Assembly: GCA_964637955.1 (NCBI GenBank)
Contig: CAZWXQ010000005.1
Coordinates: 18,993-82,992, forward strand
DNA length: 64,000 nt
Direction: 5' to 3'
Origin: an uncultured Gammaproteobacteria bacterium
GTDB lineage: Bacteria > Patescibacteriota > Microgenomatia > Levybacterales > UBA12049
Shown here: one piece after another, positions 4,900 through 56,243 of the stretch
Layout of the letters: every line of letters begins with the position of its first letter
How positions within the stretch are numbered: the stretch's first letter is position 1
Notes under the pieces: model-generated
Databases searched by the model: none
What the model was told of the DNA's origin: nothing
The model's input: only the letters and a program-made list of their open reading frames with translations
Position numbers and translations under genes: made by a program

Positions 4900-6024
4900 A
4901 TGGATAAAGTTAAATGTCCGCACTGCGGAAAAGATGTCGAGATCTCAGAAGCTATAGTTCATGAACTCCAATCAAAAGTCAGAGACGAAGAAAGTAAGAG
5001 ACTTAAGGCTCAGTTTGAGGAAGAAAAAGCAAAAACTCAGGCTGAAAACGAAAAAAAATTACGAGAAGAATTTGAATTAGCAAACAAACAAAGAGATAAA
5101 GATCTTGAAGAAGCACGAAAAAAAGAACTCGAACTTAAAGAAAAGCTAGAAAAAGAACAAGAAGAAAGAGAAAAGGCGGAGGAAAAAATACGACTTGAAG
5201 CAAAAAAAGCGGCAGAAAAAGAAGCAGAAGAAGGTCAAGCTTTAAAGATTAAAGAAAAAGATATTCAGATGGATCAGATTAAGCGCTTAGCAGAGGACTT
5301 AAGACGAGCCAATGAGGATTTGAAGCGAAAACTTGAGCAAGGAAGTCAGCAAATGCAAGGAGAAGCGCTCGAACAGGATTTCGAAGAAAAGCTGAAATCT
5401 ACTTTTCCAGGCGACGAATTTGTACCAGTTCCAAAAGGCGTAGAAGGAGGAGATATATGGCAAAAGGTTAAGTTTAATGGAAAAGTGGTGGGTTCTATCA
5501 TTTGGGAAACCAAAAGAACAAAGGCATGGAGTAATGGCTGGTTAACTAAATTAAAAGACGATGCTAATCGTATTTCAGCAACTGAAGCTATAATAGTTAC
5601 TCAAGTTTTACCATCAGACATGAATAATTTTGACAGAAAAGATGGCGTATGGTTAACAACTTATGAACATGCACTTGGGATTTGCAGATATGTAAGATTC
5701 CTCATAACTACTGTAGCGACTATTAAATCCAGCACAACACACACTGAAGAAGAATGGGGAGCAATTCGAGATTACATGCTATCCGATGGATTTAAAAGAC
5801 GCATGGAAACACACTTTGATAGCGTAAATGCGCTGCGAGTTGGACTAGATGCAGAAAGAAGAGCAACTGTTTTAAGGTGGAAAAAGCAAGAAGCTCTTAT
5901 TGAAAAGCTTGATATAAATACAGCCAATTTTTATGGAGAGCTACAGTCAATTGTGCCCAGTTTGCCAGAATTAAAAGAAGCTGATAATCTTATTACCGAT
6001 GGCGAAGACCAAACCCTCATTTAA
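4900..6024 (+). CDS. zinc-ribbon / long coiled-coil / C-terminal globular domain protein, DUF2130-like
   Basis: N-terminal CPHCGK zinc-ribbon, about 150 aa K/E-rich coiled coil, C-terminal GGDIWQKVKFNGKVVGSIIWETKRTKAWSNGWLTKLKDD...AIIVTQVLP block; family assignment from memory. Confidence 0.45.
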   Translation: MDKVKCPHCGKDVEISEAIVHELQSKVRDEESKRLKAQFEEEKAKTQAENEKKLREEFELANKQRDKDLEEARKKELELKEKLEKEQEEREKAEEKIRLEAKKAAEKEAEEGQALKIKEKDIQMDQIKRLAEDLRRANEDLKRKLEQGSQQMQGEALEQDFEEKLKSTFPGDEFVPVPKGVEGGDIWQKVKFNGKVVGSIIWETKRTKAWSNGWLTKLKDDANRISATEAIIVTQVLPSDMNNFDRKDGVWLTTYEHALGICRYVRFLITTVATIKSSTTHTEEEWGAIRDYMLSDGFKRRMETHFDSVNALRVGLDAERRATVLRWKKQEALIEKLDINTANFYGELQSIVPSLPELKEADNLITDGEDQTLI

Positions 6025-6610
6025 TGAAGAAAATTACTACTGGAAATTCGGCATAGATCATGTATTTGGTTTAGATGAAGTAGGTCGAGGAGCATTTGCT
6101 GGGCCTATCGTAGCAGCTGGAGTGATTTACAAACCAAGTTTTAAGCATGAATTTTTAGAAAAGGTAAACGATTCAAAGCTTCTTAAGCCCAAGCTCCGTG
6201 AAGAACTTTCCCTTTTCATTAAAGAAAATTCGATTTGGACAATCGAATTAGTAGATTTAGATTTTATAAATAAGTTTGGGATAGGAAAAGCAAATTACGA
6301 AGTACTTAGCAAAGTATTTTTAAGTCTTATCGACAAAATAAAATCAGAAAATTATTTCGCAATTGTCGACGGATTTGATCTTAAAATTAAAAAGCAAAAA
6401 GCAATCATAAGAGGAGATCAAATAAGCCTATCGATTGCATCCGCTTCAATAATAGCAAAAGTTTATAGAGATGAACTTATGACAAAAGCTCACATTCTTT
6501 TTCCGGATTATAACTTTGCGCAAAATAAAGGATATGGAACGCTAGCACACAGAAACGCTTTAAAAAAATTTGGGGCAAGTAGATTTCACCGCAGTGCTTT
6601 TATTGATTAA
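5999..6610 (+). CDS. rnhB: ribonuclease HII
   Basis: FGLDEVGRGAFAGPIVAAGV ... NDSKLL ... IVDGFD ... ASIIAKVYRDELM ... FPDYNFAQNKGYGT motifs of RNase HII; start overlaps preceding gene by 26 nt. Confidence 0.9.
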   Translation: MAKTKPSFNEENYYWKFGIDHVFGLDEVGRGAFAGPIVAAGVIYKPSFKHEFLEKVNDSKLLKPKLREELSLFIKENSIWTIELVDLDFINKFGIGKANYEVLSKVFLSLIDKIKSENYFAIVDGFDLKIKKQKAIIRGDQISLSIASASIIAKVYRDELMTKAHILFPDYNFAQNKGYGTLAHRNALKKFGASRFHRSAFID

Positions 6611-7004
6611 TATCGGGTTGCACCGCTTCATTAAAGTTTCTCACCATTTCTGACTTGCTATCTGCCCATAAATCAGGAACTCTACCAAAATGATCGTAAG
6701 CATTTTGTTTTAATATAACTCTATCCCTTGCTTCAATAAGTAAATATGTTGCTCTATGGATTTGTTCTGGTGTAAGATCCAGTCTTTGCAAGAGGCCGAA
6801 TGCTTCATCAGCTACAGCCATTCGGGCATGTGCATTTGCAACTCTTCGGTCCCCAGGTCTAAAGTCCGCCCAAAATCCGTTTCTAATCTGTCTTACTCTT
6901 ATTTCTGCTTCTTCTCGTGTGGAAATTCTACCAGGATCAAGTTCTGATGATTTAGGAGTTGACTCTGCAATGAAAGTTTCAACCCTTCTTAGCGCTTCAC
7001 CCAT
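6600..7004 (-). CDS. hypothetical protein (134 aa), no recognisable domain
   Basis: Long ORF in locally GC-elevated segment; no motif recognised. Confidence 0.35.
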   Translation of the reverse strand: MGEALRRVETFIAESTPKSSELDPGRISTREEAEIRVRQIRNGFWADFRPGDRRVANAHARMAVADEAFGLLQRLDLTPEQIHRATYLLIEARDRVILKQNAYDHFGRVPDLWADSKSEMVRNFNEAVQPDINQ

Positions 7005-7069
7005 GACTAAATTAAATAGTTTTAAATTAAAAATAATTTACAAATAATGTAGTAGATGTGTAAGAAAAG

Positions 7070-7098
7070 TTGACAGTCTACCAAGGCTTTGTTAAGAT
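7070..7098 (+). promoter_or_regulatory. candidate promoter TTGACA-N17-TAAGAT; predicted TSS coincides with ATG 7106 (leaderless)
   Basis: ttgacagtctaccaaggctttgttaagat; the TTG the ORF track uses as start is the first triplet of a perfect -35 hexamer. Confidence 0.35.
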
Positions 7099-8491
7099 CG
7101 TGCCCATGAGTGAAAGAGGTCCAAATCCAGGAATATCCGAATTTGCAGCAGCTCTTAGAGGCGGTAGGAGAATTGATTTGTCAGAACAAGTAAGAGAACT
7201 TGGAGCCGAACTGGAAGATAGACCTAGCGAGATGGTAGTAGTTACTGGATATGCAGAACTTACTTCCCTAGGGGATACCGAAGCGACTCGAAGAAGAGAG
7301 TTGCTTGGAGAAACTGCAGCCAGACAGTTTCCTACAGGAAATAAAAGGACCCAAATTGCCGCACATGCTGAGTTCAATCCTCTTGATCACTTTAGTAGAC
7401 AAGATATGCTAGGAATGTCTAAACTTAGCGCAATGATGCGAGTAGTAGCCAGGGATGCTGCTCGTCGTTCAGGAATTCTTGATCAAGATGGTCGCCTGGA
7501 TCCCCGATTCCACCGCGATCATGTTGGAACTACTATTTCTACTTCTGTTGGTCATATGGGAAATATAATAGCTACAAATGAAACAATAGAAAGAGAAAGT
7601 AGAGGAGAAAAAACCCATATTACTTCTAAAGAAATATTGAAAGTTCTTCCGGAGCAATCTAATGCTGGAGTTGCACAAAACTTAGGAATAAGCGGATGGG
7701 GAAGTAACTCTCAAGAAGCATGTGCAACTAGTCTTTCAAGTATAGCTGATGCAAATTTATTAATAAGATCAGGTAAGAATAGGGTTGTGCTAGCAGGTGG
7801 ATTTGAAGATACGCTTTCAGATGGAATGTCTAGACCAGCAGTAGGTTTATTTTCAGCTTTGAGAGGAGCAATATCGACAAATAACGAATACCCTGAAAAT
7901 GCAATAAGACCTTATGACAAAGATAGAGATGGATTTGTAATGGCATCAGGAGGTGGAGTAATGGTATTAGAAAGTCTGGAAAGTGCTCTAGAGAGAGGTG
8001 CTACGATTTACGCTACGATTCTTAACGCTGAAAAAGCAATGGATGGATCTGATAATCCTACACTCTTAGACGCTGACAGAGTCGCTAGGTTACTCCTTAA
8101 AACCTTAAAAGTTCAAGGAGAAGAAAAAGGGTTTTATTTACCTGATGCTATATTTACACATGCCACTGCTACTCGAGCAGGAGATTTAGCAGAAATTGAA
8201 GCATTTAGAAAAGCATTGACGAAATATCTACCTAATATTCCTACTACAGCTATTAAATCTATTCACGGACATTTACTTGGAGGAGCCGGTGTTATTAATG
8301 CTATTGCTGCAGTACGTTCACTCCATGAAGGAATAATTCAACCTACAATTAATCTAGTTAATCGTAGTGAGGAATTTATGGATTTAGATATAGTTACACA
8401 GGCTAGAGAAACTCAGATTCAAACAGCTATAGCAACAGCGTTTGGTTTTGGTGGATATGACGCTGCGGTTCTCTTCGGGAAGTATAGATAA
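7070..8491 (+). CDS. beta-ketoacyl-[ACP] synthase (KAS I/II-like thiolase-fold condensing enzyme) with about 55-aa atypical N-terminal extension
   Basis: Active-site Cys in EACATSLSSI, His in THATATRAGD and GHLLGGAGVINAIAAV, C-terminal FGFGGYDAAVLF; KS N-terminal MVVVTGY..LTSLGDTEATRRRELLGE. True start may be ATG at 7106. Confidence 0.85.
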   Translation: MTVYQGFVKIVPMSERGPNPGISEFAAALRGGRRIDLSEQVRELGAELEDRPSEMVVVTGYAELTSLGDTEATRRRELLGETAARQFPTGNKRTQIAAHAEFNPLDHFSRQDMLGMSKLSAMMRVVARDAARRSGILDQDGRLDPRFHRDHVGTTISTSVGHMGNIIATNETIERESRGEKTHITSKEILKVLPEQSNAGVAQNLGISGWGSNSQEACATSLSSIADANLLIRSGKNRVVLAGGFEDTLSDGMSRPAVGLFSALRGAISTNNEYPENAIRPYDKDRDGFVMASGGGVMVLESLESALERGATIYATILNAEKAMDGSDNPTLLDADRVARLLLKTLKVQGEEKGFYLPDAIFTHATATRAGDLAEIEAFRKALTKYLPNIPTTAIKSIHGHLLGGAGVINAIAAVRSLHEGIIQPTINLVNRSEEFMDLDIVTQARETQIQTAIATAFGFGGYDAAVLFGKYR

Positions 8492-8581: not shown

Positions 8582-9889
8582 ATGAAAAGCTTGGAAATTA
8601 GAGGCGGTGAAGAAGTAACTGGTTCACAATTTTTACTTACTGGAAATAATCGCAGCAAATTTCTTATAGACTGTGGATTAAGTCAAAAAAATGATAAAAA
8701 TCCCGGAAACACTGACTTAGACCCCACAAATTTAAAAGGAGTTTTTATTACGCATGCTCATATTGATCATGTAGGATTGGTTCAGCAACTTGTTAGATTT
8801 CCAGAAGTGCCTATTTATATGACTCCAGCTACTCTTTCAATTGCTAATATATCATTGAGAAATTCAGAAAAAATTTCACCATCACTTTTTCCTCCAGGAA
8901 GTATCGACAAAATTATGAAAAGAACTACGACTGTTCCATATGGCAGGAGATTTGAAGTAGATGGAGCAAAAGCTATATTTAGAAATGCTGGTCATATTCT
9001 GGGTTCTGCAAGCCTTGAACTTAGTGAAGGAGGAGACATTGTTGCATTTAGTGGAGATATTGGTGATTCACCGTCTCGAACAGTAAAGCCAGCAGAATAT
9101 ATAAAAGAAGCAGATATCATAGTAATGGAAGCTACTTATGGAGGAATTGAAAGACAAGAACATAACTCTACCGAGGACATAAGAGAGGCGATAAGACTTG
9201 CAAGAAAAAATAAAGGAGATCTGCTAGTACCTGTTTTTGCAATCGACAGAGCTCAATCATTCTTAAGTGAGTTACGAAAATTAAGCGAAGAGGGTTTTTT
9301 AAAAACTATGGGTATGGATGTATTCTTTTCCAGCCCAATGGCATCTGATGTTACCCGTATTTACAATGGAAACAGAGATTTATTAAATGAAAAATTAGCT
9401 AAAATTATTCGTCCTTTTGCCTTTCCAGAACTTAGGGAAACATATACGCATGCTGAAGATTTGATGATTGAAAAACAAAAAGATCCAAAAATTATAGTTG
9501 CTGGATCTGGAATGATGGCTGGAGGAAGAATTATCGAGCACGCAAAAAGATGTCTTCCTGATGAAAGAAATGTCATGTTATTTACCGGATTTCAAGCACC
9601 TGGAACAACAGGTGAAAAAATATTACGTGGAGATAAGACAGTTAAGCTGGATGGCGAAGATATTGAGGTTAAAGCTCAAATTCTATTTACATCTCTAAGC
9701 GCCCATGCAGATCAAAATGGTTTACTTTCCTGGCTGGAATATCCTCATCTAGGACAAAGGCCAGTAAGAAATACTATAGTGGTTCACGGGGAAACCGTAA
9801 AGAGACACGCTTTTGCCAATTCAGTAAAGGAGAGATTCGGATTAACGACAACAGTTCCAGATTCTGGAGATATAATTTCATTTAGTTAA
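8582..9889 (+). CDS. metallo-beta-lactamase fold hydrolase of the beta-CASP (RNase J / CPSF-like RNA-metabolising) family
   Basis: HAHIDHVG motif 2, downstream D and H motifs, C-terminal ...SAHADQNGLLSWL... and VVHGE beta-CASP motif C. Confidence 0.65.
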   Translation: MKSLEIRGGEEVTGSQFLLTGNNRSKFLIDCGLSQKNDKNPGNTDLDPTNLKGVFITHAHIDHVGLVQQLVRFPEVPIYMTPATLSIANISLRNSEKISPSLFPPGSIDKIMKRTTTVPYGRRFEVDGAKAIFRNAGHILGSASLELSEGGDIVAFSGDIGDSPSRTVKPAEYIKEADIIVMEATYGGIERQEHNSTEDIREAIRLARKNKGDLLVPVFAIDRAQSFLSELRKLSEEGFLKTMGMDVFFSSPMASDVTRIYNGNRDLLNEKLAKIIRPFAFPELRETYTHAEDLMIEKQKDPKIIVAGSGMMAGGRIIEHAKRCLPDERNVMLFTGFQAPGTTGEKILRGDKTVKLDGEDIEVKAQILFTSLSAHADQNGLLSWLEYPHLGQRPVRNTIVVHGETVKRHAFANSVKERFGLTTTVPDSGDIISFS

Positions 9890-11061: not shown

Positions 11062-13212
11062 ATGAGTCCGGAAATAGCACTAGATATTGATAGATCAACT
11101 GAACTAAATCAAGTTCGTGATCTTGTAAATAAAAAGCTAACGGATGCTCTTGTACCACCTGAAAAACTTCTAAATGGTGATATAAGATTTCAATCAGTTC
11201 TTTACATGAGCTATTGGCACCAAAGACTTCACAATAATACACTAGAACAAAATAGAATTAAGACTCATTTGGAAGAATATTTGGGAACTGCAGTTCCTGA
11301 TTCAACTATAGCTGCAGGAAATTTGTTGTCTAGCCCTGATCTTTCAGAAGCATCCAAGTCGTTTGTTGAAACACTTATGACTCCAACCAAAACTGTGGAT
11401 CTAGTGATTACAAGACAAAGTCCAGATAATGAAAATGAAACGGAAGTATTAAGTCTTGAAAGAGGATATTATCCTTTTGGCTCTGCGCTTCCTGGAGGAA
11501 TAATAAAAGATAGCGATGAAAGTAATGATTTAGATATCCCTCAAAATGTTTTCGCTGCACTAAGGGTTGCTGGAGATAAAGTACTAGGCCTAGGTGATGA
11601 AGCACAGTACTCAATTAGAACAAATGAAAGTGGCAAAACTTATTATGAAGTCTATTCTGAAAACGATTCTGCATCAGTAAGAATTCATCCTGAAGACGAA
11701 GGTGGTTATACATACAGAGAAAATATTAAATCTACTATACGTCCTGCTGACCCAAGACACATAGTGGACACAGTAGCATTTCGATCTGAGCTAATAGGAG
11801 AGCCTAAGACTAATCTTAAGTGGATAAAGAAGTCTGAGATCATGTCAGTAAATGAAACTACTGGCGGATTTGCGTTTGGACACCATAGAGAAATTGTTGC
11901 TCATATCACAAGTCAATCGTCGGTCGAAAAAGAAAGAGAAATGAGCGAACGTGAATTTGTAAGATCAATCATAAATAATCCTCTCGATGCATATAAAGCT
12001 CTTAAAGAAAGATTTGATAAAGATGGTGGAAGCTCCGAAACTTCTTTTCCTGAACTATTTCCTGCTGTAGATAAAATACTTTTAGATTTATTCAAGCATG
12101 AAATCAATCAAATGTGTGAAGATATTCCTCTTCTTGCAGGAATTAGAGACAAAGCAGTAATTTCACTTAGACAAGTCTCTCTTAAAAATAGAACTTTTAT
12201 GCCATATCTACCTACACTTTTAGCTATCACTGAAGGAATTACTTTTTTTGATGTAGTTTCTAGACAAAAAAAAGGATTTTACGATGAAATGCCAAAAGAT
12301 AGAATAGTCGAACATAATCCAGCCGAAACTCAGTATGCTCAGTACCATATGTATAGATACAAATACAGATTTAATGAAATGCTAAGTATGCTTCCAGGAG
12401 AAATTGTAATTCCTACATTCGAACCTCTGTCTGCAACAGATTTGATGAAAGTCAGAGGAGTTCCGGTAAGATTTGTCGGACTTGAGGAAGATTTTGTTTA
12501 TGTTGATGAATTCGAGCAATCTCCCGAAGAATTCTTAATGCATGATGTCAATCATTCCTGGAGAATGATCATGGAAGACAGAAAATATATGGAGGAGAGC
12601 GGAATGAGTAGAGACCAATTTGTTGAAGAGTCAACAAGATTCTCCAAGGTATATTTAGATCATATAAAGATACTAAAGTCAGATACCGAAGAAGAAAGAG
12701 AAATTAAAAAATTAAAGAAGATAATCTTATTCGAAGTAGTACATGAAGATGCACGACCATTTTTGCGAGACGTAATCACTAGATTTATACAAATGCAGGA
12801 AGGTAAACCGGTTCCATTTGAAGTTCCAAGAATCGACAAGGAAACTGGTTACATGGATGTTGTTGATACTTTAGATACTGGAATAAGTACTCTTTCTTAT
12901 GTCAGAAATAAACTTCAACATGGATTTTATGATCATATTGATGCTCAGCTCCCTCAAATAGTTGATCCAAAATACAGAACTGCGGCATGGATTTCATGGG
13001 CAGCGTATGAAATGCTTGTTGAATTAGGAGCTGACCCTGTGCAAGAAGCAGAGTTAGATGCACATGGAAATGTTTCATTTGAGTGGCTCATGAAAAGAAC
13101 ATGTGCAGTCGGACCAGACAATATTCATGATGAAATATCAGAAGATCCTGACTTAGCAGTTTATGGCGATGGAGCAGATAAACTAAACCCTAAAAGATAT
13201 CAGGCAACTTGA
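11062..13212 (+). CDS. large hypothetical protein (716 aa), no recognisable domain
   Basis: Uninterrupted ORF, acidic, no motif recognised. Confidence 0.45.
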   Translation: MSPEIALDIDRSTELNQVRDLVNKKLTDALVPPEKLLNGDIRFQSVLYMSYWHQRLHNNTLEQNRIKTHLEEYLGTAVPDSTIAAGNLLSSPDLSEASKSFVETLMTPTKTVDLVITRQSPDNENETEVLSLERGYYPFGSALPGGIIKDSDESNDLDIPQNVFAALRVAGDKVLGLGDEAQYSIRTNESGKTYYEVYSENDSASVRIHPEDEGGYTYRENIKSTIRPADPRHIVDTVAFRSELIGEPKTNLKWIKKSEIMSVNETTGGFAFGHHREIVAHITSQSSVEKEREMSEREFVRSIINNPLDAYKALKERFDKDGGSSETSFPELFPAVDKILLDLFKHEINQMCEDIPLLAGIRDKAVISLRQVSLKNRTFMPYLPTLLAITEGITFFDVVSRQKKGFYDEMPKDRIVEHNPAETQYAQYHMYRYKYRFNEMLSMLPGEIVIPTFEPLSATDLMKVRGVPVRFVGLEEDFVYVDEFEQSPEEFLMHDVNHSWRMIMEDRKYMEESGMSRDQFVEESTRFSKVYLDHIKILKSDTEEEREIKKLKKIILFEVVHEDARPFLRDVITRFIQMQEGKPVPFEVPRIDKETGYMDVVDTLDTGISTLSYVRNKLQHGFYDHIDAQLPQIVDPKYRTAAWISWAAYEMLVELGADPVQEAELDAHGNVSFEWLMKRTCAVGPDNIHDEISEDPDLAVYGDGADKLNPKRYQAT

Positions 13213-13219
13213 TCGAGTA

Positions 13220-13930
13220 TTAGAGCTTTAATCCCTTCTCCCATTGCTTCTGGAATTGATCATACATCATTTGACCAAACGGCTCGTATTCAAATCTTAT
13301 TCCCATACTTTTTATATAATTCTTGGGATCATATGACATTATATAAACAATTTTTTTATCGAAAATTACAATTCTTGAATTAAGCGTTTCCGAGATACGA
13401 ATTTCTTCTCCCATCTTTGTTCTAACTTTTATAAATTCCTCATTATTTTCGTTTCTTTTTTGGAAAAGAGTTCTTATCTTAACTCCTCTGTCTAGAGCAT
13501 TTTTTTGGGCTAACATTATTTCAGCAGGGAGCTCATCTCCAGAGGCAAGATTATTCATTTCATATTTTAAATTATTAATATCAGAAATCGCTTTCTCAAA
13601 CATATCCTCCCGGCTTTCGATAAAACTGATTATTGGCATATTACTTTGATTATTCGAATTATTACTTAGAAAAGTTTTCAAAAACCACTCTTTTTGAATT
13701 AGGCTAAAAGTTTCTACTGAATCAGTGGGAGAAATTGCATGGAAAATAGTTGGCCTACTACCAGACTGAATTAAACAACCTAAAACTAATAATTGCTTTG
13801 TAAGTCTGTAAACAGCATTAGGAAAGATATTTAACTTTTTTCCAATTTCTTCTGCACTAAGCGGGCCTTCTTTAAGGAGTAAAGAATAAATTTCTCTTGT
13901 TTGCTTTGAAAGAGGTGGTTTTGTTTTCAC
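13220..13930 (-). CDS. TrmB-family winged-helix transcriptional regulator with C-terminal effector domain
   Basis: N-terminal REIYSLLLKEGPLSAEEIGKKLNIFPNAVYRLTKQLLVLGCL wHTH typical of TrmB family. Confidence 0.55.
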   Translation of the reverse strand: MKTKPPLSKQTREIYSLLLKEGPLSAEEIGKKLNIFPNAVYRLTKQLLVLGCLIQSGSRPTIFHAISPTDSVETFSLIQKEWFLKTFLSNNSNNQSNMPIISFIESREDMFEKAISDINNLKYEMNNLASGDELPAEIMLAQKNALDRGVKIRTLFQKRNENNEEFIKVRTKMGEEIRISETLNSRIVIFDKKIVYIMSYDPKNYIKSMGIRFEYEPFGQMMYDQFQKQWEKGLKL

Positions 13931-13938
13931 GGCAACAT

Positions 13939-13958
13939 TTTAACAATTTTTTGTTAAA
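13939..13958. promoter_or_regulatory. perfect inverted repeat TTTAACAA-tttt-TTGTTAAA in divergent intergenic region; candidate operator for the TrmB-like regulator
   Basis: tttaacaattttttgttaaa between 13930 (- gene start) and 13992 (+ gene start). Confidence 0.35.
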
Positions 13959-13991
13959 TAAGCAATATCACTTACAATTTGCTTCGAGAAT

Positions 13992-15374
13992 ATGACAAAG
14001 CAATTACAAAGCAATGCATCAGAATTTTTATTTGCAAGAAAAAAACTTAAATCTCCTGCAATAATTAATTTACTGTTATCTACTTCATTTGGGCTAAATG
14101 CCATATTTTATGCTGCATGGCTAGGCTATTCAATTGGAATTTGGGCACTTTTGATTCAATTAGCATGGTCTATTAGTTTTTTTCTTTTAATTCCTAAATC
14201 AAAATATTTTAGTAAAGTTAATAGCTTGCATGATTTATTGGGTCAAAAATTTGATAATAAAACAAAATTAATAGCTTCAATTTGTAGTCTAATCGGACTA
14301 AATTACTTAATAGCTTGGGAAGTAAGCATAGATAAATCAGTAATAGCACCACTGCTTCCAAATACTTCATTACCTCCAGAGATCTTTGCAGGAATGATAA
14401 TTGGATTCTTTGTAATAGTTGCCATATTTTATACTATTAATTTTGGCATAAAAGGCAATGCAAATGCAGATAAATTCTTAAACGCGTTAAAAATGGTTAT
14501 CTTCATAGCTATTTGTTCAATTGCAATTTATGAATTTCTTAAATTACCACGAGAAATGATTATCTCATCGGTGTTTCCGCCAATTAGTAAGATCGTGATA
14601 AATCTAGGAATCATCGGATTTATGACAAATATCTTATTTAACTTAAGTTGGCAATTCGTAGACAATTCTTCATGGCAAAGTATCATAAGCGGATCGAAAT
14701 CAAAATCAAACGCTAGCGCAATAAACTTAAAGCAAAGTGGAATAATTATATTTTTTACAGTAAATTTATTTGCTACAATTCTTGGAATTACACTCGCACA
14801 TTTCAGTAATTTAACTCCTGACAGTTTATTCTCAGCAACTGCTGGAATCATACCTCAATTTGAAAGTATAGTTTCGCTAGGAATAATCATGCTCAGCATT
14901 GCCTCAATGATGTCACTTGCGGATGGAATGATTTTAACTTCAGCGCTTACCATAAATGTAGATCTTTTTAAGTATTTTAAATTTGCTAAAAATTACGACG
15001 AAAAGATAAAAATGAAATTTATAAAAATATCAGTAGTTATTTTTGGATTAATAAGCGTTTGGGGAATTAGCTTCATATTTAACATTCTCAATATTAATTT
15101 ATTTGAATTTATTTACATAATAATTATTACTCAACTTGCTTTAATTGGACCTGTTATTTTTGCTCTATATTCAAAAGATTCGAAAGGGGCGAATATGTGG
15201 AAAGCAATTATAATCGCCTTATTTGTAGGATTTGGGTCTGTACTAGTAGGAACAGTTTCTGAAAATAAAGTATTTATAGATGCTGCTGGAACAGTTACTA
15301 TTTTTAGTTCAGTATTTACCGCTTGGGTTATTGTAAAACTGAAATGTTTTAATTTAAAACTTAATCTAAGGTAG
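13992..15374 (+). CDS. polytopic membrane protein, probable secondary transporter (11-12 TM)
   Basis: 460 aa highly hydrophobic with regularly spaced TM helices; family not assignable from sequence alone. Confidence 0.45.
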   Translation: MTKQLQSNASEFLFARKKLKSPAIINLLLSTSFGLNAIFYAAWLGYSIGIWALLIQLAWSISFFLLIPKSKYFSKVNSLHDLLGQKFDNKTKLIASICSLIGLNYLIAWEVSIDKSVIAPLLPNTSLPPEIFAGMIIGFFVIVAIFYTINFGIKGNANADKFLNALKMVIFIAICSIAIYEFLKLPREMIISSVFPPISKIVINLGIIGFMTNILFNLSWQFVDNSSWQSIISGSKSKSNASAINLKQSGIIIFFTVNLFATILGITLAHFSNLTPDSLFSATAGIIPQFESIVSLGIIMLSIASMMSLADGMILTSALTINVDLFKYFKFAKNYDEKIKMKFIKISVVIFGLISVWGISFIFNILNINLFEFIYIIIITQLALIGPVIFALYSKDSKGANMWKAIIIALFVGFGSVLVGTVSENKVFIDAAGTVTIFSSVFTAWVIVKLKCFNLKLNLR

Positions 15375-15875
15375 CTGCTCAGGCTCTACTATTTTTGCAG
15401 AGGAAGCTATGACTTGAACTGGAATATGTTCGTAATTCATCCTTCCATCTTCCAACACAGTTAAAACATTTGAACCTTCTGGATAATCCATTGTAAATTT
15501 CACTCCACCTTCTACATAATCCACTCTTGATAAATCATGCATATCAATACCCATAGTTAACATTCTTCTGGATGAGTAATGAAGTGATGTTTTAGCAGGC
15601 AAACGGTCGTTTGCTTTTCTAACTTGAATATTAAATCTACCTGTTAAAGTATCTATAGCATAATCACTGAAAATATGACGATTAGTACCATATTGCTCCG
15701 TCTCAGCAACTCCATTAAGCGCTGTTGCGATCTTTAATACGTCGTCTTTAACCAACTCTAAATCATTTAAAGGAGGAAAAGCTTCATCAAAATTAACTAC
15801 TCCAAGATCTACTATTACGACATTGGCTGGGTCAGTTGGTTTTCCATCTGAAACTGGTTCTAGTTCTGAAGTCAT
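15366..15875 (-). CDS. hypothetical protein (169 aa)
   Basis: Long ORF, GC-elevated, no motif recognised. Confidence 0.35.
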   Translation of the reverse strand: MTSELEPVSDGKPTDPANVVIVDLGVVNFDEAFPPLNDLELVKDDVLKIATALNGVAETEQYGTNRHIFSDYAIDTLTGRFNIQVRKANDRLPAKTSLHYSSRRMLTMGIDMHDLSRVDYVEGGVKFTMDYPEGSNVLTVLEDGRMNYEHIPVQVIASSAKIVEPEQLP

Positions 15876-15986
15876 GGCTGGAATTATAACCTATGCAAAA
15901 CTAATTTTCAATTTAATGTTGAGCCCGTACTTTTGAAATAATTACATAAACTTATTTGCTCAGTTGTAGTATAATGCACAGCAAAT

Positions 15987-17039
15987 ATGCCTAGAGAAGA
16001 AAAATTAACGCCAGAACCTGGCTTACTAGAGAAATTATCACCACTTCGTGCTGAAATTAGCGCGTTATCAGATAATCCTCAAGCTCAATCTGAATTAGTA
16101 CAAACTTGGTTTTTAGAGCATCCAGAAAATCTAGCTAGAGATGTGGAAGATTTAACTATGATCTGCGTTCTAGAATATGACGAAAGAAAACTTCTTACAG
16201 ATCCTATTCTTGGAAACTGGTTAATGGGACAAATTGATAAGCTTACTCCAGAATCACCTACACAAGCAGAAGCATTAGCTAAAACGAAAGAAATATTTGG
16301 TCTTTTAAGATTTCATGATTCTCGATTTGGAAATGAAACAGGTAACAAAATTGCTGAAAATAATCTTTATGATGAGCTCAATGCATTACTTATTTCCGAT
16401 CCCGATACAGTTAAATATACAGTTGGCGAAGTAAGAAAAATAATGATGAATGCTCAAGATGGAGTTATGGAGCATGTACTAAGTGGCCGCTACAAAACCG
16501 GCCTAGAACATGGAATATTAGGACCTATGGATATTTTTTGGTATGGAACTACGTTAAATTTTGAAATAGAATCCCAATTTCATGAAGTAGAGCCAATGGA
16601 CGCCAGAATTTTGGTTTTAGACGACAAGGACGCTGAAGACTGGTATAAAAGACTCGTTGCTGCCGGCTTTAAGGATGATCCAGATCAACAAGGACATTTT
16701 ACTGATCCGTCCTTAGCATTAGTAGCTCTTTTAAATGGAAATTATGATGTTATTTTATCTGATTTAGATTTAGGGGAAGGACAAATGTCTGGAATAGACT
16801 TCGCTAGAATTGCATCTGCAATTCAGCGAGCAAAAGGTATTAAAGATCCTCTAATTTCAGTTTTTTCTTATGATCAGGCTCTTTTAGAAGAAGCCAATAG
16901 AACAATTGGTAGATATAGCGACAATCCTGTCTTATTCCAGCAAGTTAACGGTGGAAATAATAATAAAGTGGGTTTTACAGGATATGAATTTGGAAGAGAT
17001 GTTCGGACTGAACTATACGTCAGAGAAAATTTCCATTGA
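15987..17039 (+). CDS. orphan response-regulator receiver (REC) domain protein with novel about 190-aa N-terminal domain
   Basis: C-terminal RILVLDDKDAEDW ... YDVILSDLDLGEGQMSGIDFARIASAI matches REC fold (acidic pair, phospho-acceptor D, conserved G-D/SG). Confidence 0.5.
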   Translation: MPREEKLTPEPGLLEKLSPLRAEISALSDNPQAQSELVQTWFLEHPENLARDVEDLTMICVLEYDERKLLTDPILGNWLMGQIDKLTPESPTQAEALAKTKEIFGLLRFHDSRFGNETGNKIAENNLYDELNALLISDPDTVKYTVGEVRKIMMNAQDGVMEHVLSGRYKTGLEHGILGPMDIFWYGTTLNFEIESQFHEVEPMDARILVLDDKDAEDWYKRLVAAGFKDDPDQQGHFTDPSLALVALLNGNYDVILSDLDLGEGQMSGIDFARIASAIQRAKGIKDPLISVFSYDQALLEEANRTIGRYSDNPVLFQQVNGGNNNKVGFTGYEFGRDVRTELYVRENFH

Positions 17040-17051
17040 GCCGCCAGTACT

Positions 17052-17070
17052 TGCGACAGGAAATGTCGCA
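17052..17070 (+). other. perfect 7-bp stem hairpin directly after stop codon
   Basis: tgcgaca-ggaaa-tgtcgca. Confidence 0.3.
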
Positions 17071-17129
17071 GTATTTCGCATTGCGATGCTCAAGATTCAG
17101 GAAGCTCTAGCGAGGTCATCTACGAAAAA

Positions 17130-17152
17130 CCCAGACATAAGTCTGGGATTTT
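17130..17152. terminator. bidirectional rho-independent terminator between convergent REC gene and tRNA-Lys
   Basis: cccagac-ataa-gtctggg-atttt. Confidence 0.5.
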
Positions 17153-17157
17153 CATAG

Positions 17158-17229
17158 TGAGCCGCCAGAGATTCGAACTCTGAACCGATTCCTTAAGAGG
17201 GAATTGCTCTACCATTGAGCTAGCGGCCC
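17158..17229 (-). tRNA. tRNA-Lys (anticodon CUU), CCA not encoded
   Basis: Reverse complement folds as GGGCCGC-UA-GCUC-AAUGGUA-GAGC-A-AUUCC-CUCUUAA-GGAAU-CGGUU-CAGAG-UUCGAAU-CUCUG-GCGGCUC-A; 72 nt. Confidence 0.85.
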
Positions 17230-17278
17230 GCACATGTAATTTTACCAAAACTACAAGCTGGAATCCACTACGCATTAA

Positions 17279-17307
17279 TTGACTCTCAAGCTTAAGTAAG
17301 TTATACT
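17279..17307 (+). promoter_or_regulatory. candidate promoter TTGACT-N17-TATACT
   Basis: ttgactctcaagcttaagtaagttatact, 14 nt upstream of ATG 17321, no SD. Confidence 0.35.
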
Positions 17308-17320
17308 ACAGGTTTAAATT

Positions 17321-20158
17321 ATGAGTGAAATACCAAATCCAGGCATTGCGGAATTTAAGGGAATAGAAAGAATTGCTGAATATGACAGAACAGGCAACAG
17401 CATTTATCTGGATCCTCAAGTTTTTAGCGAAATACGCCCATATAGACCGAGAGTCAGAGGAGTAACATATGAAGTTAATGCCTCAATTAGTGGAGTCTTA
17501 AGAGAAAGTCCCATCGTTGAATGGATTCAAGCAAATCCTGAAGGATTCATGTCGCATGCAGGAAGAGATGTGCATATAAGAAGAGCTCTAGCTACAATTG
17601 ATGATCTGACAGTATCGCTTCAGACAGGAGACCAAGATTCGCAAGATTTATATATGCAATCTCTTGCTGTGGGAGAAAAAATCTCTGAGCTGGATATTCT
17701 TGCAAGACCGTATATACCAAAATCATTATCAACACCTGAACCTGAAGATGAGATGGCTGAATCTCCTATTTCAACAGAAGTTATTTTGCCTAGCATTCAG
17801 ATGAAACGAAACTTTGATTGGAAAAGTGCGCTGATTAAATTATTTAGTAAACTTCCTGAAGGAGCGACTATACCTATCAAACCTATCAAAACTCCGAACA
17901 TTCCACGAATTCCTATTAGAACGCCTCAAGCGCCACAAGAACGTATAGATGATTCCGCCTCGCGAAAAAGAAGAAGAGTGAGGGAGATTGATGATTCCGA
18001 CCTTCCTTCAAGATCCTTTCTTCTCGACGATTTTTACATTGCAGGTAGGGAAAAACTTACTAACCCAAGAGGAAGAGGAAATACTGTTGTTAGAGTAAAA
18101 AATAGCAGAAGACCAATCGCCACAAATGGATTTGTAGTAACTAAAGTTTACAACAGATATGATCCCGAATCAGGACTCATGACGACAGATTCGGAAAAAA
18201 CTCGAATTAGATATTATGACATTGTGCATATAGATTCCACGAGCATCAGCGCCAATATAGGTGTTATTGATCCAATGAAATTTAAAACTATCGGTATACC
18301 TTTTTATGTTACTGACACAGATAATAGGACGTTTGAGCCTGACATAAAAGATAAACTTATAAATTTACAGATTGTAGGAAAAGACGGAGTCATAGTTGAA
18401 AAATATGATCTAGTAGAATATGTAGATGTAGATGGGCTTGGAAATTTAAGCCTATCACTTGAAGACATGCCTGATGAAGTAAGAAGAAAATTAACAGGTC
18501 AAAGTCTTACCATAAATGCTTTTTATAAAACCGGTTTCAATGAACGTACAAAAGTTCATCAGTCAGAACTTCTTGGTCCATTCTCCGAAGATGAAGATTT
18601 CAGATTAAATCTTTACCCCGAAGACATAGCAAATCTTATTAGAAGACTAAGAGAAGTTATAAAAGACGGAAGCGAAAGAGATCCATTTTCAATCCTCACT
18701 CAATATTTATCAGTGTGGGCTCTTGAATACGATATTAAAGATGCAGCAATAAGCAAGGATGATCCTGTGTCTTTTAATCAGACTGAAAGAGTTCTCGAAA
18801 GAAAATTAGCTTCATGTGAAGGTGCAAATATTGCGCTTGGACAATTAATGAGACATCTTATAAAGCCTGGTGAAGGAATTGCATTTGTGACAGGGTATCA
18901 ATTGGGTACAGGCGGCACTGCAGATGATATGAGTGGACATATGATGGTGATGTATGTAGATAAAAAAGGAAACAAAACTTATCTCGATGCTACTCCCTGG
19001 CTTCCCGAACAACGCAAAAGAGTTGAAAATGAAAGAAGAGCCGCTGTGCGAGCAAAAGAAGTCTGGTATAGAAGCACAAAGTATTTGAGAGAAAACCCCA
19101 ATTTTTTGAAAGAATTTAGATCCCTTAAAGAAAGAGCGCGTAATGCAACAACTAGATTATCTGACTCCTGGAACATAGGTGACTTGACCTATGAACTAGA
19201 ACAGGAATTGAGAGATTTTGGAATATATATAGCAAAGTTTAAACAAGAACCAGCTGTTTATTTTGAAGAACCTAAATTGATAGTTCCCCAACCAGATCCT
19301 AATGATCCAAAAGGTGCCGAAAGAACCCGTGAAAGAATTGGTCTTATTCCCGTTATAAGAAAGCATTTTAAAGTACCAGAAAGGATGAAAGCTTTTTGGC
19401 CTGAGAGCTATGATTATATTGATGGCACATTAGAAATCAAAATCCCTAATTATTATCGTGATTTTTATAGAGGATTTTATTACTCCAAGCCAAAAGATCC
19501 TAGCGCTTATTATATGGGAGACTCACCGGCGTCCAGCGAGGCAAGAGCAAGACGTGATTTGCTCTATAATGGCCGTATTCAAAGAAAAACTATTTCCGCA
19601 ATGACAAGAGTACTAGAGGCTTCTACGTATGCTTCTGCTCAAAATATTCAAGCATATGAAACTCTTGCAACTTTAGTCGAAGCGGAATATGAAAGACAAA
19701 AAAGAGCATTAATAGCATGTTTTGAATCAATTCCCGGAGGATTAGGGCAGGATTTGGACAACTTCTGGAACCAGATGCCTTTTATAAGACTTATTGATTC
19801 ACCGTTTCCTCATTTAACAGACTTTTTCACTAGGTCAATAGATTCAAGTTCTCTTGGACATCTTGTAACTTCATCCGGAAACATAGAGGAAGATTTTAAT
19901 TTAAGAATTTCAGAATGGAGAACTGAGATGGATAAGAGAATTGCATCATTTTATGAATTTATTCAATATGCTCCTAGAAAATCAAAAAGTCCAACAGTGG
20001 TAGAAGTTCCAAGTACATTTTTATGGAGGCAAATGAAAGATGTTAGACCAACTGAGCCTGAAGAAAGACCTGATATTGTTGATCCATTGGGTACGTTTGC
20101 GCTTCTGGCAAGACATATGGATGACTATAAATATCCCCATACGAGAATTAATAGATAA
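17321..20158 (+). CDS. large hypothetical protein (945 aa) with central transglutaminase-like cysteine-protease core
   Basis: Cys-His-Asp arrangement CEGANIALGQLMRHL...GIAFVTGY...GHMMVMYVDKKGNKTYLDATPW resembles TGc domain (C..FA.....G......HAW.EVY....W..DPT). Confidence 0.5.
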   Translation: MSEIPNPGIAEFKGIERIAEYDRTGNSIYLDPQVFSEIRPYRPRVRGVTYEVNASISGVLRESPIVEWIQANPEGFMSHAGRDVHIRRALATIDDLTVSLQTGDQDSQDLYMQSLAVGEKISELDILARPYIPKSLSTPEPEDEMAESPISTEVILPSIQMKRNFDWKSALIKLFSKLPEGATIPIKPIKTPNIPRIPIRTPQAPQERIDDSASRKRRRVREIDDSDLPSRSFLLDDFYIAGREKLTNPRGRGNTVVRVKNSRRPIATNGFVVTKVYNRYDPESGLMTTDSEKTRIRYYDIVHIDSTSISANIGVIDPMKFKTIGIPFYVTDTDNRTFEPDIKDKLINLQIVGKDGVIVEKYDLVEYVDVDGLGNLSLSLEDMPDEVRRKLTGQSLTINAFYKTGFNERTKVHQSELLGPFSEDEDFRLNLYPEDIANLIRRLREVIKDGSERDPFSILTQYLSVWALEYDIKDAAISKDDPVSFNQTERVLERKLASCEGANIALGQLMRHLIKPGEGIAFVTGYQLGTGGTADDMSGHMMVMYVDKKGNKTYLDATPWLPEQRKRVENERRAAVRAKEVWYRSTKYLRENPNFLKEFRSLKERARNATTRLSDSWNIGDLTYELEQELRDFGIYIAKFKQEPAVYFEEPKLIVPQPDPNDPKGAERTRERIGLIPVIRKHFKVPERMKAFWPESYDYIDGTLEIKIPNYYRDFYRGFYYSKPKDPSAYYMGDSPASSEARARRDLLYNGRIQRKTISAMTRVLEASTYASAQNIQAYETLATLVEAEYERQKRALIACFESIPGGLGQDLDNFWNQMPFIRLIDSPFPHLTDFFTRSIDSSSLGHLVTSSGNIEEDFNLRISEWRTEMDKRIASFYEFIQYAPRKSKSPTVVEVPSTFLWRQMKDVRPTEPEERPDIVDPLGTFALLARHMDDYKYPHTRINR

Positions 20159-21257: not shown

Positions 21258-21261
21258 CTGC

Positions 21262-24319: not shown

Positions 24320-24386
24320 ATCAATCCGAAACAAGTTTTAGACCTATAGTTGACAATTCATAAATTATTTTCTATAATTCGCAACT

Positions 24387-25031: not shown

Positions 25032-25040
25032 TAATTTATC

Positions 25041-25088
25041 TAAATTTGCAAAAATATATCAATCTGATACAATATTTATACAAGGCCT
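25041..25088 (+). promoter_or_regulatory. promoter module (TTGCAA-N16-TGnTACAAT) nearly identical to 32801..32848
   Basis: taaatttgcaaaaatatatcaatctgatacaatatttata vs taaatttgcaaagatatatcaatctggtacaatttttata. Confidence 0.45.
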
Positions 25089-25111
25089 TCGGAAATACTC
25101 TGAAATTACTT

Positions 25112-41815: not shown

Positions 41816-41816
41816 T

Positions 41817-44197: not shown

Positions 44198-44198
44198 T

Positions 44199-48541: not shown

Positions 48542-49174
48542 ATGAACTCAACTCAAATAAAATACACATCTCTTGCGTCAGAAACTTCAATTAAAAAAAC
48601 AATTGAATCACTCAGTAAAAATGGCTTTATCCCAACAGTTGCGGATTCAGAAAAAGAAGCTTTAGCAGAAATCATAAAACTTATCCCTGAAGGATCGTCC
48701 ATTAACAATGGGACTTCAAAAACTCTTCAGGAAATAGGATTTGTAGATCTTCTTAAGGCAGGGGATCATAGCTGGGAAAATCTACATGAAACTATATTGG
48801 AAGAAAAGGATCCCAAAAAACAAGCACATCTTAGAAAACTCTCAACGATTTCAGATTTTTATCTTGGTAGCGCACACGCTTTAACTGAAAATGGGGAAAT
48901 ACTGATTGCGTCAAATACCGGCAGTCAACTTCCGCACTTAGTATTCACATCTCAAAATATAATTCTTGTAGTAGGAGCGCAGAAGATTACCAAAAACTTA
49001 GATGATGCATTCAAAAGACTAAACGAAGTTGTTATTCCGCAAGAAAACGAAAGAATGATGGGTGTTTATGGAGTCGGAACAACTCATGCAAAAACTCTTA
49101 TACTTCATAAAGAAAATCCTATGATGGGAAGAAAAATTTATGTGATTTTAGTAAAAGAAAGTTTAGGATTTTAA
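48542..49174 (+). CDS. LUD-domain (LutC/YkgG-like) protein
   Basis: About 210 aa with ILIASNTGSQLPHLVFTSQNIILVVGAQKI pattern consistent with the LUD family. Confidence 0.45.
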   Translation: MNSTQIKYTSLASETSIKKTIESLSKNGFIPTVADSEKEALAEIIKLIPEGSSINNGTSKTLQEIGFVDLLKAGDHSWENLHETILEEKDPKKQAHLRKLSTISDFYLGSAHALTENGEILIASNTGSQLPHLVFTSQNIILVVGAQKITKNLDDAFKRLNEVVIPQENERMMGVYGVGTTHAKTLILHKENPMMGRKIYVILVKESLGF

Positions 49175-50112
49175 TGAAAGCAGCTCAATATAAAAAATAC
49201 GGCGATACAAGTGCTATAGAAGTTATTGACAATGCTAAGGATCCTGAATATTCTGATTCTCAAATACTGATTGAAGTTTTTTCTTCAAGTATAAATCCTG
49301 TTGAATCCGCAATAAGAAATGGCTACATGCAGCAAATGCTTCCGTTAAATTTCCCAGCAACACTTGGGGGAGATTTTTCGGGTGTAGTAAAAGAGGTGGG
49401 TAAAAATGTAACTAAATTTAAAATTGGAGATGAAATTTTCGGAATTGCTAATCCATTTAAAGGAGGATCCGGTTCAGTTGCTCAATTTGTTACCGCTAAT
49501 GAAATAAATTCTGCTATAAAGCCTTCTAACATTGACCATGAAAAAGCTTCGAGCTTACCCCTGGTCGGAACAAGTGCAATCCAAGCCTTAGAAGAACACA
49601 TTCAGATTGAATCAGGCCAGAAGATATTAATCCATGGAGGTGCTGGAGGCATAGGATCAATAGCTATTCAAGTCGCTAAATCACATGGAGCGTATGTTGC
49701 AACGACCACAAACAATGAATCAATTGAATTTATAAAAAACTTAGGAGCAAATGAAGCAATTGATTATAAAACCCAAGATTTTACAAAAATACTAAAAGAA
49801 TTTGATGCAGTTTTTGATACAGTGGGCGGAGAAATAACAAATAAATCAATTTATATACTTAAAAAAGGTGGTATTTTAGTTACAATGGCTGGCCAAATAG
49901 ATGATAATTTAGCAAAAGAACATGATATAAAAGCTATAACTCAAATGACAAACGGAGACACAAACACATTAAATAGGTTAAAAGACTTGATTGAAACAGA
50001 AAAAATTAAGCCTGTAATTGATTCTGTATTTTCACTAGAACAAGCTAAAGAAGCTTATGAGTTACTTGAAGAAGGTCATACAAAAGGTAAAATTGTTATA
50101 AGGATTAAGTAA
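49174..50112 (+). CDS. zinc-type alcohol dehydrogenase / NADPH:quinone oxidoreductase (MDR superfamily)
   Basis: N-terminal GroES-like domain, Rossmann GGAGGIGSIAIQVAK, C-terminal KGKIVI. Confidence 0.8.
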   Translation: MKAAQYKKYGDTSAIEVIDNAKDPEYSDSQILIEVFSSSINPVESAIRNGYMQQMLPLNFPATLGGDFSGVVKEVGKNVTKFKIGDEIFGIANPFKGGSGSVAQFVTANEINSAIKPSNIDHEKASSLPLVGTSAIQALEEHIQIESGQKILIHGGAGGIGSIAIQVAKSHGAYVATTTNNESIEFIKNLGANEAIDYKTQDFTKILKEFDAVFDTVGGEITNKSIYILKKGGILVTMAGQIDDNLAKEHDIKAITQMTNGDTNTLNRLKDLIETEKIKPVIDSVFSLEQAKEAYELLEEGHTKGKIVIRIK

Positions 50113-55473: not shown

Positions 55474-55521
55474 TTGACAAATTTACAAAAAGTAGTATAG
55501 TTAGTGTCATATGTACACTAA
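55474..55521 (+). promoter_or_regulatory. promoter TTGACA-N16-TATAGT plus 21-bp palindromic operator TTAGTGT-N7-ACACTAA overlapping the nrtR start codon
   Basis: ttgacaaatttacaaaaagtagtatagttagtgtcatatgtacactaa; ATG (55511) lies in the centre of the inverted repeat, 10 nt after the -10. Confidence 0.45.
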
Positions 55522-56203: not shown

Positions 56204-56243
56204 TATTTTTTTACACTTTAGTTAGTGTAGGAATTACACTATT

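Follow-up and report, generated by a model that had tools for sequence, protein, structure and literature searches.

What does a gene for a beta-ketoacyl synthase (KS) do in a stretch of DNA that carries no other gene of fatty-acid synthesis (FAS)? The question is raised by a FabF-like gene in a Patescibacteria genome segment of 64,000 nucleotides (contig CAZWXQ010000005.1), which as a whole is referred to here as the window. The original prediction singled the gene out as a lone condensing enzyme, perhaps acquired horizontally and doing something other than FAS. Our analysis leads to a different answer, which we hold to be somewhat better than an even bet: the gene would encode a vertically inherited enzyme of the beta-ketoacyl-ACP (acyl carrier protein) synthase II (KAS II) type, which serves acyl-chain elongation in a scattered or eroding fatty-acid system of the candidate phyla radiation (CPR) and has its partners elsewhere in the genome.

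Identity of the condensing enzyme

The gene and its catalytic residues are located as follows, with residue numbers according to the 461-aa protein that starts at ATG 7106.

7070..8491, + strand: mechanically called open reading frame (ORF) of a FabF-like beta-ketoacyl synthase (473-aa translation)
7106..8491, + strand: probable coding sequence of this FabF-like enzyme, whose 461 aa match the public protein P0001 exactly (domains, PDB and NCBIfam matches, public gene call)
7721..7723, + strand: active-site Cys, C206, equivalent to E. coli FabF Cys163, in the motif EACATS (alignment)
8159..8161, + strand: first catalytic His, H352, corresponding to His303 of FabF; its motif HATAT stands in place of the HGTST of FabF (alignment)
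8255..8272, + strand: K384 to H389, equivalent to FabF Lys335 and His340, in KSIHGHLLGG, with the Lys at 8255-8257 and the His at 8270-8272 (alignment)
8447..8449, + strand: F448, the gate Phe in the GFGG loop, corresponding to Phe400 of FabF (alignment)

Both the N- and the C-terminal Pfam ketoacyl-synt domains are found in ORF 7070..8491 (E 2.6e-17 and 1.1e-15), and PF00109 and PF02801 pass the gathering cutoff of 20.8 bits with scores of 63.7 and 58.1 bits. Solved FabF structures align with residues 55-472 of the 473-aa ORF, the best match being the T. thermophilus enzyme (1J3N, E 3e-54). In an alignment with E. coli FabF, whose reference sequence was checked and is identical to PDB 6OKG chain A, the Cys of ACATS, the His of HATAT and the His of GHLLGG fall on C163, H303 and H340. 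The complete catalytic triad that had been claimed for this gene is thus confirmed, and the equivalents of FabF Asp311, Glu314 and Thr270 are present as well. Moreover, the window KS retains every residue that is invariant in 26 aligned sequences of its clade, as well as every residue invariant in clade members and four ordinary FabF proteins together. A Cys-His-His triad is of the decarboxylating type, while thiolases and KAS III enzymes carry Cys-His-Asn. Because the window KS has the former, the chemistry to be expected is decarboxylating and not that of a thiolase or KAS III; thiolase models cover only about 35 residues around the Cys, with 17-22 bits. By analogy with its family, the enzyme would load the acyl chain on Cys206, and the His352/His389 pair together with Lys384 would decarboxylate a malonyl thioester, normally malonyl-acyl carrier protein (malonyl-ACP). 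The resulting carbanion would then attack the acyl-enzyme to yield a beta-ketoacyl product two carbons longer.

The predicted fold points the same way. An AlphaFold2 model of the KS, computed from a 26-sequence alignment, reaches a predicted local distance difference test score (pLDDT) of 90 and a predicted template-modelling score (pTM) of 0.91. When this model was compared with the PDB by Foldseek, the top 30 matches were all FabF (E ~1e-40, target-normalised template-modelling (TM) scores of 0.89-0.92), the best structural neighbours being the FabF enzymes of P. aeruginosa, B. subtilis and Synechocystis (target-normalised TM 0.91). The NCBIfam models rank the enzyme as fabF (242.7 bits) before FabB (198 bits), KasA (181 bits) and the KS of type II polyketide synthases (PKS; 125 bits). 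Judged by these comparisons, the window gene encodes an intact KAS II (FabF)-type condensing enzyme, which is predicted to work like FabF yet falls outside the curated FabF equivalog.

With FabF/KAS II (TIGR03150; E. coli 2GFW and 6OKG; T. thermophilus 1J3N) the window KS has in common the thiolase fold with its two Pfam KS domains, the Cys-His-His residues and the equivalents of Lys335, Phe400, GDxxE and T270; furthermore, its relatives sit with genes for FabD, ACP, FabG, FabZ-like and FabH proteins. It differs from FabF in that it is only 29-33% identical, belongs to a separate sister clade, carries an N-terminal helical extension, keeps the ACP-docking basic patch only in part and has no fab neighbour within 64 kb. 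Its clade also has motifs of its own, with HAT(A/S)T in place of HGTST, EACAT(S/G)LSS in place of TAC(A/T)SG and a clade-specific FPE(E/Q)...GWG segment. FabB/KAS I and the mycobacterial KasA/KasB share fold, triad and length class, and their NCBIfam models match over the full length; however, these matches score below FabF, the window KS keeps FabF-like features and there is no FabA partner in the window. The KS-alpha proteins of type II PKS (actinorhodin 1TQY, E 3e-41) and aryl-polyene KS are likewise discrete enzymes that can sit away from fab genes. Here, the respective model NF005490 yields 125 bits against a cutoff of 445, and no gene for a chain-length factor, ACP, cyclase or aromatase is found near the window KS. 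Giant multi-KS PKS proteins score high in our profile search only through their summed KS domains.

A clade of extended KS proteins and its gene neighbourhoods

In a homology search of 5.8 billion proteins about 28 relatives of the window KS were found at 35-77% identity, mostly of 445-476 aa barring truncated entries, beyond which identity falls straight to ordinary FabF at 33%. Those relatives that bear a name are assigned to Candidatus Levybacteria, the Microgenomates group and the Patescibacteria group. A profile search of 1.84 billion cluster representatives yielded 26 further single-domain members, which are rare metagenomic sequences. In a neighbour-joining tree (Kimura distance, 100 bootstraps) of 52 clade proteins and 16 FabF, rooted with E. 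coli FabB as outgroup, the 52 extended KS proteins are monophyletic with 99% bootstrap and form the sister group of the FabF proteins, with PKS KS domains outside; FabF sampling in this tree is limited and the method simple. The window KS hence lies beside the FabF clade and not within it. A KS phylogeny had been proposed as a check on the original prediction; it does set the gene apart from ordinary FabF, but the named members of its group are all Patescibacteria, which speaks against horizontal transfer.

The motifs FPE(E/Q), GWG.NS.EACA(T/S)(G/S)LS and HAT(S/A)T mark the clade, and the window KS carries them as LPEQ (with one conservative change), GWGSNSQEACATSLSS and HATAT. Metagenome contigs at JGI were scanned with a 42-aa clade-specific fragment as query, and all 29 of the 29 confirmed loci with the peptide EACA[TS][GS]LS proved to be clade members. 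This clade of at least 52 sequences, with its N-terminal helical extension, appears to be specific to Patescibacteria/Microgenomates. In the literature searched we found no description of it, nor of a FAS cluster of the Microgenomates type. Within the clade, the window KS groups with P0002, P0004, P0005, P0010 and P0127 in subclade A (99%), which is sister to subclade B at 89% bootstrap.

Two peculiarities of individual subclade-A branches were noted. In the P0010 branch (L095:3228-4595, L096:4708-6075), the near-universal motif RPFD..RDGF is changed to (L/K)PFN..R(S/T)GF while the triad is retained; this change may reflect a relaxed or altered function. At L117:191-2946, two extended-KS genes lie in tandem directly 5' of rpsF-ssb-rpsR. 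Such a pair superficially resembles the KS pair of a PKS; since both copies retain Cys/His/Lys/His, it is not a pair of KS and chain-length factor.

To see the gene in context, we examined the neighbourhoods of its relatives, using exact-protein look-ups and the 29 JGI metagenome loci, with 10-20 kb visible around each. In subclade B, locus L090:56-13575 (JGI Ga0485839_0000772) carries a whole gene set of type II fatty-acid synthesis (FAS II). It comprises a PlsC-like acyltransferase with a fused ApbA_C domain, an ACP of 104 aa, FabD, the extended KS, a fusion of a short-chain dehydrogenase/reductase with FabZ (SDR-FabZ, 564 aa), FabH, a fused biotin carboxylase/carboxyltransferase (1068 aa), a protein like the biotin carboxyl carrier protein, a biotin ligase and a FabG-like SDR. 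Large parts of this set recur in L005 and L110. Wherever a subclade-B locus includes upstream flank, FabD adjoins the KS (seven of seven: L005, L090, L110, L111, L113, L115, L116). A second, ordinary FabF was not seen in the subclade-B loci. Contigs of Patescibacteria type apparently hold a compact and complete FAS II-type cluster, in which the orthologue from the sister subclade is the elongating KS. Such clusters are at odds with the usual picture, in which CPR/Patescibacteria cannot make their own fatty acids and depend on their hosts for lipids. In subclade C, a hotdog dehydratase gene lies directly 3' of the KS in about 15 loci, often together with a FabG-like SDR and a methyltransferase. 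The subclade-D loci L093/L094 combine FabD, two SDRs, an SDR-FabZ fusion, a methyltransferase, an acyl-AMP ligase and a GDSL lipase. Finally, in subclade E, a 68-aa FabD relic that corresponds to residues 239-306 only (L007:1673-1873 and L008:1518-1718, both on the - strand) lies between genes, immediately behind an intact KS (P0026, Microgenomates bacterium Gr01-1014_7), in two independent assemblies.

Subclade A is different. None of its contexts (window, L003/L004, L089, L095, L096, L117) has any FAS neighbour at all, and in the four contigs L003, L089, L096 and L117 the KS lies just 5' of rpsF-ssb-rpsR. For the window itself, every non-overlapping ORF of at least 60 aa was scanned against Pfam, and none contains a PP-binding, Acyl_transf_1, adh_short/ketoreductase, FabA/FabZ, ACP_syn_III, carboxylase (acetyl-CoA carboxylase, ACC) or ACPS domain. 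Likewise, phmmer and tblastn searches of all six frames with more than 25 FAS-cluster proteins of the relatives and three ACPs returned the KS as the sole match, which at 8.9e-120 served as positive control. The claim that no other FAS or PKS genes lie near the KS therefore holds within 64 kb: acpP, fabD, fabG and fabZ accompany the subclade-B orthologues but not the window gene. The only reductase-like gene in the window encodes a generic zinc-dependent alcohol dehydrogenase of the medium-chain dehydrogenase/reductase type (49174..50112), 41 kb off and adjoining an HxlR regulator. Relics of lost partners were also considered; tblastn with the cluster proteins, at E up to 10 or 1 and with the SDR-FabZ of L124 and the FabH of L126 from the closest relatives among the queries, detected nothing of the kind in the window.

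The chromosomal position of the KS gene is more informative. Two genes define it on its 5' side:

5999..6610, + strand: RNase HII, which anchors a conserved block (Pfam; 66.5% identical to the RNase HII of L124)
6600..7004, - strand: small protein of 134 aa, predicted all-helical, divergent to the KS (four homologues, synteny, AlphaFold2)

The window, L124 and L126 share a block of genes for UvrC, SBP_bac_5, SecG, a holin-like protein, DUF2130, RNase HII and the small ORF. In these syntenic relatives the small ORF lies between RNase HII and a single divergent gene of FAS type, and this gene differs by genome. In the window it is the KS, and in L128, which holds the closest KS relative (P0002, 62% identical), it is likewise a KS. 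In L124 (L124:8274-9887, - strand, on a 243-kb contig of GCA_964416505.1) the slot is occupied by a full-length SDR-FabZ fusion of 537 aa, which shares 30% identity with its L090 counterpart (E 5e-59) and has the FabZ-type dehydratase motif GHF...PGH intact. In L126 (L126:403-1449, - strand) it is occupied by FabH, with 225 bits to the FabH subfamily model. The gene order in L128 is RNase HII, two small reverse ORFs and the KS; the 130-aa ORF of L128 has no detectable homology to the window ORF 6600..7004.

Descent and role of the solitary gene

Horizontal acquisition had been suggested partly on the grounds of base composition. The segment 6600..8491 is indeed richer in G+C than its flanks, with 0.396 compared to 0.346 +/- 0.025 in windows of equal size (top 0.6%), and it includes the G+C maximum of the window. 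By codon position, however, the G+C content of the KS gene is 0.55 (GC1), 0.46 (GC2) and 0.207 (GC3), the last being below the window mean (z = -0.88), and the small neighbour ORF 6600..7004 has a GC3 of 0.237 (z = +0.06). The KS is rich in Gly (9.5 vs 6.5%), Ala (11.2 vs 6.0%) and Arg (7.6 vs 4.4%) and poor in Lys (3.4 vs 7.4%). The raised G+C is thus explained by amino-acid composition, since the excess is confined to codon positions 1 and 2. Relative synonymous codon usage (RSCU) of the KS correlates with that of the rest of the window with r = 0.91, a value that places it in the top half of 33 genes. With native GC3 and native synonymous codon usage, composition therefore gives no signal of horizontal transfer. 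Because of this, because L128 repeats the order RNase HII, small ORF and KS, and because other subclade-A genes hold a fixed position in four contigs, we consider the window gene to be inherited within the Patescibacteria lineage and not recently imported. The KS itself is an ordinary-looking, vertically inherited enzyme with an ordinary mechanism.

Hence, the proposal of a recently transferred stand-alone KS with a task outside FAS, be it a polyketide-like signal, lipid remodelling or a thiolase-type reaction, deserves hardly any credence. Apart from the G+C maximum it could draw on the local isolation of the gene and on the methyltransferase, AMP-dependent ligase and GDSL lipase genes near the KS in subclades C and D, which might indicate a specialised lipid pathway. 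It is contradicted by GC3, by RSCU, by an excess of G+C in codon positions 1 and 2 only, by close relatives that all belong to one CPR-named clade with the best outside match at 33% identity, and by the conserved arrangement in L128. Its functional side is countered by the fabF score, which lies far above that of type II PKS KS (243 against 125 bits), by thiolase models that match only around the active-site Cys, and by a triad that is not the Cys-His-Asn of thiolases and KAS III. Recent transfer can thus be regarded as largely refuted, and we rejected it on GC3, RSCU, clade membership and synteny.

Very unlikely, too, in our estimation, is a dedicated KS of a specialised type II pathway that would make a methylated or hydroxylated lipid or elongate or modify scavenged fatty acids. 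The clade is separate from housekeeping FabF, a conserved methyltransferase adjoins the KS in many loci of subclades C and D and is also found near the L090 cluster, L094 has an acyl-AMP ligase, a GDSL lipase and a CTP-transferase downstream, and L117 carries its tandem KS pair, all of which would fit such a pathway. Yet the gene set of subclade B, from ACC to a glycerolipid-type acyltransferase, is what marks the bulk synthesis of fatty acids and phospholipids, the subclade-B loci show no second, ordinary FabF, and none of the accessory genes for methyltransferase, ligase and lipase is present in the window.

There remain the explanations that start from a FAS ancestry. A KS is unable to elongate on its own. 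On the reading that we prefer, i.e. that of a scattered system, the ancestral cluster would have been broken up in the window's subclade, with the KS left as a single gene in its slot and another single FAS gene left in the same slot of related genomes. A FAS-type role is the default assumption because the subclade-B KS sits in full FAS II-type clusters. That partners should exist elsewhere is suggested because a lone SDR-FabZ or FabH would be senseless without them and because the KS residues are intact across 38-50% divergence; FAS-type genes in the window's own lineage do occur as single genes (the SDR-FabZ of L124, the FabH of L126).

Several observations weigh against this preferred reading. 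No partner gene is visible in 64 kb, nor in the five other subclade-A contexts, which add about 50 kb. Among the matches from 5.8 billion proteins there was no KS of subclade A that came from the assembly of L124, which hints that the relatives may hold partial gene sets. The FabD relic of L007/L008 reads as direct evidence of FAS-cluster decay within the clade. The fabF equivalog TIGR03150 scores about half its cutoff of 493.75 bits, and NF005589 reaches 242.5 bits against a cutoff of 387, so that none of the KS models reaches its own cutoff. In the first ACP-docking patch (FabF K65, R68, K69), two basic residues are replaced by Q and L in the window KS, and the position of K69 is Gly there, as in most of the clade. 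Last, the taxonomy of the clade leans on four named relatives, most members being anonymous metagenome proteins.

Much of this evidence could equally be claimed for a solitary survivor, an unlikely reading in our judgement, which nevertheless has to be taken seriously. According to it, the ancestral FAS II cluster of the slot was pared down differently in each lineage, the genome truly has no partners, and the KS would have a reduced or altered job (use of host-derived acyl thioesters, transacylase or decarboxylase activity) or would be on its way to being lost. Such a history would fit the one differing FAS gene per genome at the slot (KS in the window and L128, SDR-FabZ in L124, FabH in L126), the FabD relic beside an intact KS, and the six out of six subclade-A contexts without FAS neighbours, where nearly all contexts of subclades B to D have them. 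It would also fit the altered RPFD..RDG motif of the P0010 group and the circumstance that the only NCBI-sourced subclade-A KS proteins found are P0001 and P0010, so that the metagenome-assembled genome (MAG) of L124 may lack one. CPR bacteria have moreover been reported to be generally without complete lipid synthesis (PMC7242380). On the other hand, the window KS differs from its counterparts in L128, L089 and L003 by 38-50% in sequence and has nevertheless kept every catalytic and clade-invariant residue, which speaks for purifying selection that has long acted on the canonical chemistry. Without partners, a lone SDR-FabZ or FabH would make even less sense, scattered genes are an equally simple explanation, and MAGs are incomplete, with only 10-20 kb to be seen per relative. 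A bolder variant, which we rate as quite improbable, holds that the pathway was dismantled gene by gene while an intact solitary KS was kept for a job without cognate ACP, acyltransferase, ketoreductase or dehydratase, e.g. on host-supplied acyl thioesters and possibly together with the small helical protein. If true, such partner-independent use of a KAS II-type enzyme would be new in an episymbiont.

A partial FAS II has a precedent among CPR bacteria in some Nealsonbacteria (Parcubacteria), for which a near-complete pathway without ACP synthase and FabD was described (Probst et al. 2020, PMC7242380). As in the lineage studied here, some FAS II homologues are present and the set is apparently incomplete. 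The two cases differ in that the KS relatives of Microgenomates type do carry FabD and ACP in compact clusters, while the window lineage has single scattered genes. The loci described above form a gradient that runs from full clusters to the single, scattered genes of which the window is an example, with partial sets and the FabD relic in between. If whole-genome inventories confirm it, this series would document the loss of lipid synthesis in progress in episymbionts and would single out lineages that retain a lone condensing enzyme.

Gene start, small neighbour and further features of the window

The start of the KS gene bears on its N-terminal extension, which had been put at about 55 aa and described as absent from FabF/FabB. 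The relevant features are:

7070..7098, + strand: promoter-like site, TTGACA at 7070-7075, a 17-nt spacer and a TG-extended TAAGAT at 7093-7098 (10/12 match)
7106..7231, + strand: 42-aa N-terminal extension, preceding the MVVVTG with which KAS I/II canonically begin (alignments, AlphaFold2 model)

ATG 7106 is the likely start codon. The public gene call of the identical protein P0001 (461 aa) begins there, and the residues that follow immediately (GIS.F..LRG..RIDLS) are shared with the relatives P0002 and P0005. Two other starts were considered and rejected. TTG 7070, which would give the 55-aa extension, is part of the -35 box of the promoter-like site, and both the P0001 call and conservation favour 7106. 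TTG 7178 has an AGGAG 7 nt upstream, but the GIS.F..LRG..RIDLS residues 5' of it are conserved in P0002 and P0005. With ATG 7106 as start the extension thus measures 42 aa; it is real, only shorter than had been claimed. The site at 7070-7098 is the best promoter-like match of the region; as such matches around the KS are no commoner than in shuffled sequence, it is suggestive only. Its -10 box ends at 7098, 7 nt 5' of ATG 7106, and no Shine-Dalgarno sequence was found ahead of this ATG, from which it appears that the KS mRNA may be leaderless.

Within the extension, the AlphaFold2 model predicts one helix with low confidence (residues 8-19) and a second one confidently (26-32), and a motif (D)LS..A.ELG..E..RP runs through the whole clade. 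Ahead of the Thr of VVVTG the window KS has 46 residues, compared to a clade median of 32 and to 8 in FabF/FabB. At least 22 residues precede this Thr in 51 of 52 clade members, and about 24 aa of the extension are clade-wide. No solved KS structure covers it, as the PDB alignments begin at residue 54-56 of the 473-aa ORF.

The small ORF 6600..7004, taken for an orphan in the original prediction, has four homologues at 60-70% identity and is therefore one of a five-member family. It has no Pfam or NCBIfam match. AlphaFold2 predicts a four-helical protein, with a pLDDT of 70 in only one of five models and no significant fold match. We considered a divergent ACP or a known regulator and rejected both, as there is neither a Pfam or NCBIfam match nor a DSL motif nor a significant fold match. 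The link of this protein to FAS genes may be purely positional.

On the other side of the KS, the original prediction had placed a gene for a beta-CASP metallo-beta-lactamase (MBL)-fold protein, which is indeed found there:

8582..9889, + strand: beta-CASP/MBL/RMMBL protein, downstream of the KS (Pfam, NCBIfam)

The promoter of its own that the original prediction gave this gene is only a possibility, as promoter-like matches are no commoner than in shuffled sequence, and no terminator was found on the + strand after the KS. Its best NCBIfam matches are type VII CRISPR Cas14 (286 bits, cutoff 800) and the archaeal aCPSF1 (230 bits, cutoff 580). Both scores are far below cutoff, no CRISPR array was seen, and in relatives the place of this gene downstream of the KS is not conserved. 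The product is probably a generic beta-CASP ribonuclease.

Further along the window, the intervals 11062-20158 and 23582-25705 hold large ORFs (716, 169, 350, 945, 245, 214 and 219 aa) without Pfam match, with genes for a TrmB-like regulator and a membrane protein scattered among them. Most of these ORFs are rich in Arg, Asp and Glu and poor in Lys, Ile and Asn compared to their neighbours, and L124 covers the equivalent interval in about 5 kb; the two intervals look like lineage-specific inserted material. Two paralogous efflux-type operons, each for HlyD, an ABC ATPase and a MacB-FtsX permease, are located at 20214-23132 and 42875-46123, the latter after a two-component system (41150-42809). 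At 55511-57761, a gene for a NUDIX-NrtR-type regulator adjoins a nicotinamide/nicotinate phosphoribosyltransferase-like gene to form an NAD-salvage module. After this module come a radical-SAM gene and, encoded on the other strand, a 602-aa protein with a methyltransferase domain (57758-61473).

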